Positions 43,601 through 46,600 of a DNA stretch of 64,000 nucleotides are shown in pieces. Position numbers: made by a program. This DNA comes from Escherichia coli O157:H7. Lineage in GTDB: Bacteria; Pseudomonadota; Gammaproteobacteria; Enterobacterales; Enterobacteriaceae. Location of the stretch: the NCBI RefSeq assembly GCF_013167455.1, contig NZ_CP038328.1. One strand, given 5' to 3'. Numbering within the stretch: the first letter of the stretch is position 1; each line of letters begins with the position of its first letter.

Positions 43601-46600
43601 TGACCCCGCGCCTGAAAACCCCCATGATCCGTCGCCAGCGTGGCGGCAAACTCGAACCTGTTTCCTGGGATGAGGCACTGAATTACGTTGCCGAGCGCCT
43701 GAGCGCCATCAAAGAGAAGTACGGTCCGGATGCCATCCAGACGACCGGCTCCTCGCGTGGTACGGGTAACGAAACCAACTATGTAATGCAAAAATTTGCG
43801 CGCGCCGTTATTGGTACCAATAACGTTGACTGCTGCGCTCGTGTCTGACACGGCCCATCGGTTGCAGGTCTGCACCAATCGGTCGGTAATGGCGCAATGA
43901 GCAATGCTATTAACGAAATTGATAATACCGATTTAGTGTTCGTTTTCGGGTACAACCCGGCGGATTCCCACCCAATCGTGGCGAATCACGTAATTAACGC
44001 TAAACGTAACGGGGCGAAAATTATCGTCTGCGATCCGCGCAAAATTGAAACCGCGCGCATTGCTGACATGCACATTGCACTGAAAAACGGCTCGAACATC
44101 GCGCTGTTGAATGCGATGGGCCATGTCATTATTGAAGAAAATCTGTACGACAAAGCATTCGTCGCTTCCCGTACAGAAGGCTTTGAAGAGTATCGTAAAA
44201 TCGTTGAAGGCTACACGCCGGAGTCGGTTGAAGATATCACCGGCGTCAGCGCCAGTGAGATTCGTCAGGCGGCACGGATGTATGCCCAGGCGAAAAGCGC
44301 CGCCATCCTGTGGGGCATGGGTGTAACCCAGTTCTACCAGGGCGTGGAAACCGTGCGTTCTCTGACCAGCCTCGCGATGCTGACCGGTAACCTCGGTAAG
44401 CCACATGCGGGTGTTAACCCGGTTCGTGGTCAGAACAACGTGCAGGGTGCCTGCGATATGGGCGCGCTGCCGGATACGTATCCGGGATACCAGTACGTAA
44501 AAGATCCGGCTAACCGCGAGAAATTCGCCAAAGCCTGGGGCGTGGAAAGCCTGCCTGCTCATACCGGTTATCGCATCAGCGAGCTGCCGCACCGCGCAGC
44601 GCATGGCGAAGTGCGTGCCGCGTACATTATGGGCGAAGATCCGCTACAAACTGACGCGGAGCTGTCGGCAGTACGTAAAGCCTTTGAAGATCTGGAACTG
44701 GTTATCGTTCAGGACATCTTTATGACCAAAACCGCGTCGGCGGCGGATGTTATTTTACCGTCAACGTCGTGGGGCGAGCATGAAGGCGTGTTTACTGCGG
44801 CTGACCGTGGCTTCCAGCGTTTCTTCAAAGCAGTTGAACCGAAATGGGATCTGAAAACGGACTGGCAAATCATCAGTGAAATCGCCACCCGTATGGGTTA
44901 TCCGATGCACTACAACAACACCCAGGAGATCTGGGATGAGTTGCGTCATCTGTGCCCGGATTTCTACGGTGCGACTTACGAGAAAATGGGCGAACTGGGC
45001 TTCATTCAGTGGCCTTGCCGCGATACTTCAGATGCCGATCAGGGGACTTCTTATCTGTTTAAAGAGAAGTTTGACACCCCGAACGGTCTGGCGCAGTTCT
45101 TCACCTGCGACTGGGTAGCGCCAATCGACAAACTCACCGACGAGTACCCGATGGTACTGTCAACGGTGCGTGAAGTTGGTCACTACTCTTGCCGTTCGAT
45201 GACCGGTAACTGTGCGGCACTGGCGGCGCTGGCTGATGAACCTGGCTACGCACAAATCAATACCGAAGACGCCAAACGTCTGAGTATTGAAGATGAGGCA
45301 TTGGTTTGGGTGCACTCGCGTAAAGGCAAAATTATCACCCGTGCGCAGGTCAGCGATCGTCCGAACAAAGGGGCGATTTACATGACCTACCAGTGGTGGA
45401 TTGGTGCCTGTAACGAGCTGGTTACCGAAAACTTAAGCCCGATTACGAAAACGCCGGAATACAAATACTGCGCCGTGCGCGTCGAGCCGATCGCCGATCA
45501 GCGCGCCGCCGAGCAGTACGTGATTGACGAGTACAACAAGTTGAAAACTCGCCTGCGCGAAGCGGCACTGGCGTAATACAGTCCTTTCTACAGCCTCCTT
45601 TCGGAGGCTGTTTTTTTATCCATTCGAACTCTTTATACTGGTTACTCCCTACCCAATCGTATTATCAAAATGAAAAAAATTATCGCATTGATGTTGTTTT
45701 TGACATTCTTTGCCCACGCCAACGACTCCGAGCCTGGCAGCCAGTATTTAAAGGCAGCAGAGGCCGGGGACCGACGCGCACAATATTTTCTTGCCGACAG
45801 CTGGTTTAGCTCCGGCGATTTGAGCAAAGCCGAATATTGGGCACAGAAAGCCGCCGACAGCGGTGATGCTGATGCCTGCGCGCTGTTGGCGCAGATCAAA
45901 ATCACCAATCCGGTCAGTCTGGACTATCCACAAGCAAAAGTTCTTGCAGAGAAAGCGGCGCAAGCGGGCAGTAAAGAAGGTGAAGTAACGCTGGCGCATA
46001 TTCTGGTAAATACTCAAGCGGGTAAACCGGATTATCCAAAGGCGATTTCGCTGTTAGAAAACGCCTCGGAAGATCTGGAGAACGACTCTGCCGTCGATGC
46101 CCAAATGCTGCTTGGTTTGATTTACGCCAACGGCGTGGGCATTAAGGCCGACGATGACAAGGCAACCTGGTATTTCAAACGCAGCTCTGCAATTTCCCGA
46201 ACCGGTTATTCCGAGTACTGGGCGGGAATGATGTTCTTAAACGGTGAAGAAGGTTTTATCGAGAAGAACAAGCAAAAGGCGCTGCACTGGTTGAACCTGA
46301 GCTGTATGGAAGGGTTTGATACCGGGTGTGAAGAGTTTGAAAAATTAACTAACGGTTAAGGTAGGCCTGATAAGACGCGTTAAGCGTCGCATCAGGCGTT
46401 GATGTCGGATGCAGCGTAAACGCCTTATCAGACCTACAAAATCACGCTAGCGCTGTCTGACGTAGGCCTGATAAGACGCACCAGCGTCGCATCAGGCATC
46501 CACACATTGCCGGGGGATATCCCCGGCAATCTTCAATTATTGATCCGCAGTTTTATCAAATTTGCCCAGCACTTCACGCTCATAAGCCAGCGCCTTTTTG

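Follow-up and report, generated by a model that had tools for sequence, protein, structure and literature searches.

Selenocysteine recoding of an in-frame UGA in fdhF of Escherichia coli O157:H7 and the SECIS hairpin that follows it

Introduction

Mechanical ORF calling splits the fdhF locus of Escherichia coli O157:H7 in two, and the question is whether the UGA at the break ends a protein or encodes selenocysteine (Sec). We examined the locus in a 64-kb (64,000-nt) stretch of the chromosome, hereafter the window. fdhF is the founding example of bacterial selenocysteine recoding, and the copy in the window is the textbook E. coli formate dehydrogenase H (FDH-H) gene with its UGA recoded as selenocysteine, which is already well known; it brings no new biology. 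Its practical value lies in annotation, as naive ORF callers split fdhF and the fragments are widespread in public protein sets. We put the probability at about 0.97 that fdhF here is one 715-codon frame in which UGA-140 is recoded via a SECIS element and SelB, with sigma-54-dependent transcription and probable activation by FhlA.

SelB-dependent SECIS elements are defined by a hairpin immediately 3' of the UGA whose apical stem-loop, lying some 11 nt from the UGA, has a bulged U and a loop of the GGUC type (G23, U24). For the exact element considered here, published work places the UGA at codon 140 and the SECIS at codons 141-153, and reports fdhF recoding of 30-40% in vivo with no read-through without selenium (PMC4513850). 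From the literature on this sequence, SelB is also known to bind it, and recoding to depend on selA, selB, selC and selD.

Results

The reading frame and the UGA codon are placed as follows.

43429..45576, + strand: fdhF coding sequence, 715 codons plus TAA stop, encoding formate dehydrogenase H with Sec as codon 140 (translation, RefSeq, PDB, TIGR01591)
43846..43848, + strand: UGA codon 140, recoded as selenocysteine (translation, residue 140 of PDB 1AA6, TGA/Cys pattern in homologues)

The six-frame ORF list contains a 139-aa ORF (43429-43848) and a 559-aa ORF (43897-45576), both in frame 1, the latter starting at the first ATG after the TGA, 16 codons on. Translation of 43429-45576 agrees with this split, which the initial annotation had described, and gives the TGA at 43846-43848 as the sole internal stop, in the context CCARV-stop-HGPSVAGLHQSVGNGAMSNA. 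The DNA of the region is 100% identical to that of E. coli (O157-like) chromosomes, and the region was found in 5419 of 5426 complete E. coli genomes. RefSeq annotates a single fdhF CDS of 2148 nt (WP_010904990.1), designated selenocysteine-containing, whose coordinates match 43429-45576. The alignment to annotated fdhF that had been proposed as a check thus returned full identity and one CDS.

The region around the UGA carries the following RNA elements.

43841..43895, + strand: SECIS element, full Rfam SECIS_2 model with outer helix GUGUC/GGCGC, lower stem and apical hairpin (87.1 bits)
43860..43876, + strand: apical 17-nt minihelix GGUUGCAGGUCUGCACC, with loop GGUC at 43867-43870 and bulged U at 43862 (U17)

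The match to Rfam SECIS_2 (RF01988) is full-length (1-55 of 55 positions) and scores 87.1 bits (gathering score 70; E = 8.5e-19), a result that is probably partly circular, since the family likely includes E. coli fdhF itself. It is the sole SECIS match within the 64 kb, and against SECIS_3 the same element reaches only 35.8 bits (gathering score 63). The 55-nt sequence is identical in 5411 of 5420 E. coli records. The minihelix begins 11 nt past the UGA, its loop is GGUC, and the register with a bulged U17 is the one favoured by comparative data, in agreement with the definition given above; that this minihelix is the part bound by SelB is taken from published work. The hairpin that had been proposed just 3' of the TGA is therefore present, and the 46-nt string quoted for it occurs verbatim at 43849-43894. 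Its location was right and its extent slightly short, as it had been drawn at 43846-43890 and the Rfam model spans 43841-43895.

Folding predicts a hairpin 3' of the UGA of -14.9 kcal/mol for 43846-43895 and -19.7 kcal/mol for 43841-43895, and the minimum free energy structure of the latter is the SECIS_2 consensus structure. The RNA-folding check that had been suggested for 43846-43895 thus yields the expected hairpin, but its stability does not discriminate: relative to dinucleotide shuffles the z scores were -0.08, -1.23, -0.67 and -0.91, which is not beyond chance. Folding energy was dropped as evidence in either direction, because the hairpin is not separable from shuffled sequence by this measure, and stability above background is not a defining trait of the SECIS_2 family. 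With a hairpin energy like that of the shuffles, the above-chance case rests on the covariance-model score and on comparative constraint.

For the comparative analysis, 12 Sec-type copies (the window and 11 orthologues from other species) were set against 13 homologues with a Cys codon. None of the 12 Sec-type copies has lost the TGA. In 15-codon windows, synonymous divergence among these copies reaches its minimum for the whole gene where the start lies at codons 134-141, with values of 0.167-0.199 (mean 0.438, standard deviation 0.076), and the low-divergence stretch, codons 134-155, comprises the UGA and the hairpin. When only Enterobacteriaceae are considered, the synonymous minimum is 0.092 and the mean 0.381. 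The corresponding windows of the Cys group have values of 0.67-0.70 and rank 647-679 of 712, among the most divergent of the gene. Synonymous constraint over the hairpin is thus seen with the TGA only, while wobble positions in the Cys-codon homologues are free. SECIS_2 scores above the gathering score at nine of the 11 Sec-type orthologue loci and at none of the 13 Cys-codon loci.

Within the element, the apical minihelix does not vary among the 10 Enterobacteriaceae copies, and Budvicia has it unchanged. In Haemophilus, two base pairs of the apical helix are exchanged (G15-C31 for U-A, U18-A29 for A-U), compensatory changes that keep its shape. Codons 146-148 are invariant in 12 of 12 copies, and codon 149 in 11, the exception being the Haemophilus CTC, which supplies the base that forms the A18-U29 pair. 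In 10 distinct orthologue sequences, pairing is seen in 94.5% of cells, and sliding the partners lowers it to 22-49%. Two compensatory pairs, equalled in 2 of 500 shuffles, result from the register in which U17 bulges; the Rfam register, with U18 bulged, was set aside for covariation, as it gives only one such pair, equalled in 48 of 500. This covariation comes from the Haemophilus lineage only, because the element is nearly invariant elsewhere. In the orthologue alignment, the lower stem of the SECIS is not kept in Haemophilus or Budvicia.

These comparisons bear on the possibility that read-through of the UGA needs no hairpin, with a near-cognate Trp- or Cys-tRNA, for instance, decoding a leaky UGA-C, and that the hairpin is a by-product of the protein codons. 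The UGA-C context is a weak terminator, and a hairpin no more stable than its shuffles is what such an account would expect. Against it, the wobble positions are constrained in TGA genes only and vary freely in Cys homologues that encode nearly the same peptide and have no SECIS match, and the Haemophilus apical helix has changed in a compensatory manner. Moreover, constructs lacking either the SECIS or selenium show essentially no read-through (PMC4513850). We consider read-through of this kind highly improbable, and recoding directed by the SECIS is the reading that we retain.

The protein itself also speaks for a single gene. With Sec at position 140, the product of the window aligns with crystallised FDH-H (PDB 1AA6) over residues 1-715 with one difference, G619S, and position 140 is a non-standard residue in the crystallised chains 1AA6, 1FDO and 2IV2. 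The NCBIfam profile for FdhF (TIGR01591) scores 1088.1 bits against a cut-off of 666.25 and covers residues 6-685, while the FDH-N alpha model TIGR01553 gives the same protein only 244 bits, below its cut-off of 814. The N-terminal 4Fe-4S motif CxxCxxxC...C (C8-P-Y-C11-A-S-G-C15 and C42) is present in the translation as in the crystallised protein. Two functional genes, a small Fe-S protein of 139 aa and a molybdopterin protein of 559 aa translated from the ATG at 43897, would account for that ATG and for gene-finders calling both ORFs apart. Yet the peptide encoded by the 16 codons from TGA to ATG is conserved and can be aligned with homologues and the crystallised enzyme, no Shine-Dalgarno sequence for the ATG at 43897 was evident on reading the sequence, and both the family models and the solved structures cross the junction as one domain architecture, which leaves two separate genes scarcely credible.

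The claim that fdhF is one continuous selenoprotein gene is upheld by the single RefSeq CDS, the match to 1AA6 and the 11 Sec-type orthologues. In nine orthologues the frame could be traced to its stop, and there it remains open for a further 575-578 codons after the TGA; at the other two of the 11 loci, the available DNA ends with the frame still open. In the 13 genomic Cys-codon homologues, TGT or TGC replaces the TGA within the shared context CCARV-x-HGPSVAGL, and the corresponding residue is Cys in PDB 7QV7, 7BKB and 9WXB and non-standard in 9T1S. The UGA position therefore aligns with Sec or Cys, the molybdenum-ligand residue, across FdhF homologues. Just downstream, Sec genes encode HQSV where Cys genes have QETL or QATL, and the Sec/Cys contrast is a clean illustration of a SECIS that constrains wobble positions and encoded peptide alike. 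That fdhF is here a pseudogene, with a nonsense mutation leaving a dead 139-aa stub and an untranslated remainder, would fit the mechanical ORF split and the standing of both fragments as separate proteins in public databases, but is already refuted by conservation, given the same TGA in 5419 of 5426 E. coli genomes and 11 other species, the open downstream frame, the highly conserved protein sequence around the TGA with Cys at the exact position in homologues, and the crystal structure of the full chain with Sec140.

The signals for expression of the single frame are placed as follows.

43264..43316, + strand: putative FhlA enhancer (UAS) region, with three TTTCGT half-sites (43264, 43269, 43301) and inverted repeat TCGTCA...TGACGA / GTCAAAACTGAC
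43362..43377, + strand: sigma-54 (-24/-12) element TGGCATAAAAGATGCA, GG-N10-GC (matrix score and conservation)
43417..43420, + strand: Shine-Dalgarno GGAG, 8 nt before the ATG (read from the sequence)
45590..45618, + strand: fdhF intrinsic terminator, 9-bp stem with 6 G-C pairs, TTCG-type loop, then a T-run

The sigma-54 element lies 52 nt before the ATG, is co-oriented with fdhF and has two mismatches to TGGCAC-N5-TTGCA. On the published RpoN matrix it scores 13.4 bits and ranks fifth among all positions of the window on both strands, and TGGCA..N7..TGCAT is conserved in nine of 10 Enterobacteriaceae copies, with the window counted. These results support the sigma-54 promoter that had been proposed upstream, and binding of RpoN holoenzyme in the K-12 fdhF-mdtP spacer has been published (PMC8743547). 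No sigma-70-like promoter was found in 43200-45700. A plain search of the window for the sigma-54 consensus showed no enrichment (20 matches against 28 expected); being uninformative alone, it was replaced by the published matrix and conservation.

The site upstream of fdhF that had been put forward for FhlA is plausible but weakly supported by sequence, and of the proposed elements it has the weakest case; the putative binding region has the following features. The only cluster in the 64 kb of at least three TTTCGT half-sites within 50 bp is at 43264-43306, and a cluster of this kind arose in 4 of 200 Markov-1 simulations. Direct repeats D2 and D3 fall in 43264-43316, and two blocks, TTCG(T/A)CACGTCA..TGACGA and CCTGTTTTTCGTCAG(A/G)GTTTTG, are conserved in enteric orthologues, with the half-site cluster inside. 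On the other side, the best match upstream of fdhF to the published FhlA matrix (PMC7658346) is weak, at 8.1 bits and rank 101, and the 16-mer FhlA consensus CATTTCGTACGAAATG cited in PMC4987338 is matched there with at least 7 mismatches in 16. Both the matrix and the consensus were rejected as site finders, their matches upstream of fdhF being weak and non-distinctive. What stands of the proposal is the unique half-site cluster within conserved blocks.

At the translation start, ACTGGAGC around the Shine-Dalgarno sequence is conserved in enteric orthologues. With a terminator that starts 14 nt past its stop codon, fdhF is apparently monocistronic. A weak Rfam match to Atu_Ti3 at 45580-45615 is the fdhF terminator.

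Discussion

The reading frame, the gene's identity, the SECIS model match, the comparative constraint, the Sec/Cys correspondence with homologues and the conservation of the promoter element come from the analysis above; the sequence of events proposed for the window draws in addition on what is established for fdhF about binding by SelB, the insertion of Sec, activation by FhlA and the enzyme's chemistry. Transcription would start from the sigma-54 promoter at 43362-43377, with the formate-sensing activator FhlA probably acting from the upstream enhancer (about 43264-43316), and would end at the terminator at 45590-45618. As a ribosome reaches UGA-140, the downstream mRNA would be folded as the SECIS hairpin (43841-43895), and the C-terminal domain of SelB would hold the apical 17-nt minihelix (43860-43876) with its GGUC loop and bulged U17. 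SelB-GTP would then bring Sec-tRNA(Sec) to the A site, and selenocysteine would be inserted in place of RF2 termination. The expected product is formate dehydrogenase H, a molybdopterin enzyme of 80 kDa that would have Sec140 as a ligand of its molybdenum. We met no evidence that contradicts the recoding explanation. Neither sel genes nor tRNA-Sec were found in the 64-kb window, where there is no tRNA gene; tRNA-Sec (selC) is present in 5424 of 5426 E. coli genomes. Since the sel genes lie outside the window, we infer their presence in the source strain from the species.

Constraint in the Sec-type copies also extends upstream of the UGA, where it begins about 6-10 codons before it: windows with their first codon at 126-131 are already the 17th-22nd lowest of 703, and hardly any variation is seen among the 12 copies at codons 130-132, 135-136 and 139. 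This pattern goes beyond what the five bases of the Rfam outer helix would explain. It is doubtful, though conceivable, that it marks an extra recoding determinant, such as mRNA context or an effect of the nascent peptide or P-site tRNA; it could equally reflect ordinary codon bias at Asn and Cys codons, given a small sample whose 12 sequences are related.

The initial annotation had also expected a standard gene-caller to miscall fdhF. This holds for part of the public record, as public collections contain separate proteins identical to the 139-aa and to the 559-aa fragment, each encoded on at least 1000 contigs, but not for NCBI PGAP, which annotates fdhF correctly. Pipelines applied to the window should treat 43429-45576 as a single CDS and mark codon 140 as a translation exception.

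Among known systems, fdhF of E. coli K-12 (Sec140 and SECIS; RF01988; 1AA6/1FDO/2IV2) is the same gene, with mdtP upstream, yjcO downstream and UGA as codon 140. The copy in the window differs from it by G619S in the protein and by an O157-type surrounding chromosome; the recoding element shows no difference. The Cys FdhF homologues of Citrobacter, Enterobacter, Klebsiella, Yersinia and Clostridium, and the FdhF of HDCR (7QV7), share the fold and the motif CCARV-C-HGPSVAGL, and differ in having TGT or TGC for TGA, no SECIS match, free wobble positions and QETL or QATL in place of HQSV. The fdnG and fdoG genes (FDH-N and FDH-O alpha), whose SECIS elements are related to SECIS_3, likewise have an in-frame UGA and a hairpin within the coding sequence, with the motif ARV-U-HGP(S/T)VA; their hairpin sequence differs from that of fdhF in the window, as does the downstream peptide (SLAPTFGRGAMTN). 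The genome scan returned 96 loci of the fdnG/fdoG type.

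Results and discussion

The fdhF gene of this E. coli O157:H7 chromosome contains the textbook UGA-140 selenocysteine (Sec) codon and its downstream SECIS hairpin, an element already known and recorded in Rfam, RefSeq and the PDB. The initial annotation had proposed this recoding from the sequence, and both its observation and its interpretation were correct.

Features of the fdhF region, (+) strand, in window positions
43362-43377: sigma-54 promoter element TGGCATAAAAGATGCA, with GG-N10-GC spacing
43429-45576: fdhF coding sequence, 2148 nt, a single CDS in RefSeq that maps exactly to the window
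43841-43895: SECIS in its minimum free energy (MFE) fold, with outer helix GUGUC/GGCGC, a lower stem and the apical minihelix
43860-43876: apical 17-nt minihelix GGUUGCAGGUCUGCACC, with a GGUC loop, starting 11 nt past the UGA
45590-45618: intrinsic terminator downstream of fdhF

Reading frame and gene identity

Mechanical ORF calling finds two ORFs in a common frame, one of 139 aa (43429-43848) and one of 559 aa (43897-45576). Translation of 43429-45576 yields 715 sense positions and one internal stop (...NNVDCCARV*HGPSVAGLHQSVGNGAMSNA...), the TGA read at 43846-43848, and the 16 codons from there to the first ATG of the 559-aa ORF are open, which confirms that the TGA alone parts the two ORFs. 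The hairpin sequence quoted in the initial annotation lies at 43849-43894.

RefSeq flags the CDS as selenocysteine-containing, with mdtP and yjcO on either side. The conceptual protein, with X at position 140, matches formate dehydrogenase H in the PDB (1AA6, 1FDI, 1FDO, 2IV2, 7Z0T) over residues 1-715 with 1667 bits, and position 140 of the PDB chain is likewise a non-standard residue; G619S (codon 619, 45283-45285) is the sole difference from the crystallised K-12 enzyme (1AA6). On the NCBIfam model TIGR01591 (formate dehydrogenase subunit alpha), whose cut-off is 666 bits, the protein reaches 1088 bits. Many E. coli chromosomes share positions 43200-45700 with 100% identity, and O157-type strains rank among the top matches. 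From melR to ghxP, the window runs collinear along its full length with E. coli 2017C-4109; a single 1-bp indel and a small number of substitutions set the two apart. Of 5426 complete E. coli genomes, 5419 contain the fdhF region and seven lack it; four plasmid-labelled E. coli records also contain it.

The predicted gene-caller error is real and common. The exact 139-aa and 559-aa products both occur in a public collection of 15 billion proteins, each on at least 1000 contigs, under names that include 'Formate dehydrogenase H' (139 aa) and 'formate dehydrogenase-H, selenopolypeptide subunit' (559 aa), and these split products are a widespread annotation artefact; yet NCBI's PGAP joins fdhF correctly. 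They stand verbatim as separate proteins (43429-43845 and 43897-45573) in clusters of 2374 and 11377 members. E. coli RefSeq records carry the CDS under three names: 'formate dehydrogenase N subunit alpha, selenocysteine-containing', 'formate dehydrogenase H subunit alpha, selenocysteine-containing' and plain 'formate dehydrogenase subunit alpha'. The 'N' is a misnomer, since the encoded FdhF scores 244 bits on the FDH-N alpha model TIGR01553, well under its cut-off of 814.

The SECIS element and its conservation

Rfam SECIS_2 (RF01988) has a full-length match at 43841-43895 (87.1 bits, E = 8.5e-19, gathering score 70), the sole SECIS match in the 64 kb, although this match is partly circular, the family having probably been built around this very element. 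The MFE fold of the 55-mer (-19.7 kcal/mol) equals the model structure. As for the stable hairpin that the initial annotation looked for, a hairpin is indeed predicted, but this is weak confirmation, because its folding energy is no better than those of dinucleotide shuffles (z = -0.08, -1.23, -0.67 and -0.91); stability thus carries no information on the SECIS. Nine E. coli records carry a variant within the 55-nt SECIS.

We scanned one genome per species at the codon level for A-R-V-[TGA/TGC/TGT]-H-G-P-[S/T]-V-A, leaving wobble positions free. The 120 loci fell into 11 FdhF-type TGA (Sec) genes, 13 FdhF-type TGT/TGC (Cys) genes and 96 FdnG/FdoG-type TGA genes. The Sec genes came from Citrobacter, E. 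albertii, Enterobacter, Superficieibacter, Mangrovibacter, Budvicia and Haemophilus; downstream of the TGA, the frame is open for 575-578 codons in the nine traceable to a stop and to the sequence end in the other two. The Cys genes have a Cys codon at the UGA position and keep the CCARV-x-HGPSVAGL context. SECIS_2 reached its gathering score in 9/11 Sec loci versus 0/13 Cys loci. After the active-site motif, Sec genes encode HQSV whereas Cys genes encode QETL or QATL; the hairpin's 3' arm thus appears to restrict the protein sequence as well. Seven Enterobacteriaceae genomes have both a Sec-type fdhF and a Cys-type paralogue that share the active-site motif (scan loci L018/L019, L028/L029, L040/L043, L050/L051, L065/L064, L078/L076 and L097/L096); these Cys paralogues have QETL/QATL for HQSV, free wobble positions and no SECIS match.

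Synonymous divergence was computed in 15-codon windows over a codon alignment of 12 Sec genes (ours and the 11 orthologues). The lowest values of 703 windows are those of windows that start at codons 134-141 (0.167-0.199; gene mean 0.438, sd 0.076), and the minimum for the Enterobacteriaceae alone is 0.092 versus a mean of 0.381. The same windows of the Cys genes are among the most divergent (0.67-0.70, ranks 647-679 of 712). That fdhF is a pseudogene, that two separate genes are present, or that the UGA is read through leakily and independently of the SECIS is contradicted by this RNA constraint specific to TGA-bearing genes, by the conserved TGA and downstream frame, by the Sec/Cys pairing with homologues and by the full-chain crystal structure.

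Codons 146-148 (GCA GGU CUG), the top of the apical hairpin, are unchanged in all 12 Sec copies and codon 149 (CAC) in 11, Haemophilus having CUC, which forms an A18-U29 pair. The remaining variation falls mostly at unpaired or G-U-tolerant positions or at the A12-U34 pair, which no more than half of the copies keep. The near-invariance of the element leaves little room for covariation. In Haemophilus, G15-C31 becomes U-A and U18-A29 becomes A-U. With U17 (43862) bulged, there are two compensatory pairs, equalled in 2/500 shuffles, and 94.5% of cells are paired versus 22-49% with slid partners. These aligned changes support the U17-bulged register over that of the Rfam structure line. Haemophilus haemolyticus (L021) and Budvicia diplopodorum (L120) keep the apical hairpin but not the lower stem, and both score under the gathering score, so SECIS_2 misses real members outside the Enterobacteriaceae. 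The lost lower stems agree with the view in the literature that nothing beyond a correctly spaced apical minihelix is required.

A study of this very element puts the UGA at codon 140 and the SECIS in codons 141-153, reports 30-40% recoding in vivo and next to no read-through when selenium or the SECIS is missing, and notes that an approaching ribosome requires the lower stem to melt (PMC4513850). A tRNA gene search of the 64 kb found none; tRNA-Sec occurs in 5424/5426 E. coli genomes, O157:H7 included. As the trans-acting genes lie outside the window, we infer SelB binding and Sec insertion at UGA-140 in the source strain from established knowledge of the identical sequence.

Regulatory region and other window features

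The GG-N10-GC element of the proposed sigma-54 promoter scores 13.4 bits on an RpoN matrix (PMC7658346), rank 5 of all window positions, and is kept in 9/10 Enterobacteriaceae copies, ours among the 10; in K-12, RpoN holoenzyme binds within the fdhF-mdtP spacer (PMC8743547). A bare consensus search was not enriched across the window (20 matches versus 28 expected), and a promoter search found no sigma-70-like promoter near fdhF.

The putative FhlA site is plausible, on weaker evidence than the promoter. The best fdhF-upstream match to a published FhlA matrix, CGTCAAAACTGACG (43277-43290), ranks only 101, and the 16-mer consensus CATTTCGTACGAAATG (PMC4987338) meets at least 7 mismatches there; however, a cluster of three TTTCGT half-sites at 43264-43306, the only one in the 64 kb (4/200 simulated sequences contain such a cluster), lies within blocks conserved among enteric orthologues and 47-100 bp upstream of the -24 element, the expected enhancer position. 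Just past the mdtP stop, a terminator-like hairpin of 11 pairs (43238-43263), followed by TTTCGTTTCG, abuts and overlaps the first half-sites. An imperfect inverted repeat (43368-43380/43396-43408; 13 nt, 77% complementary) links the -12 element to the fdhF 5' leader; Citrobacter and Superficieibacter leaders show a small palindrome, CGCG-N4-CGCG, at the same position.

Elsewhere in the window, Rfam gave five matches to the REP-element-derived naRNA4 (coordinates 14651-14827, 17304-17384, 46364-46434 and 56956-57027; one match directly past yjcO) and a full-length match to the sRNA STnc630 (8819-8984, minus strand). Collinearity with 2017C-4109 gives phnO the annotation of a frameshifted pseudogene (~25087-25522), and a cluster at ~26757-35907, between yjcS and yjdP, encodes a sugar ABC transporter, a kinase, an aldolase, a D-lyxose/D-mannose isomerase, a hybrid sensor histidine kinase and a separate response regulator, where K-12 has the als/rpiB genes. 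The same collinearity places the T3SS effector gene espX5 at ~59260-60552.
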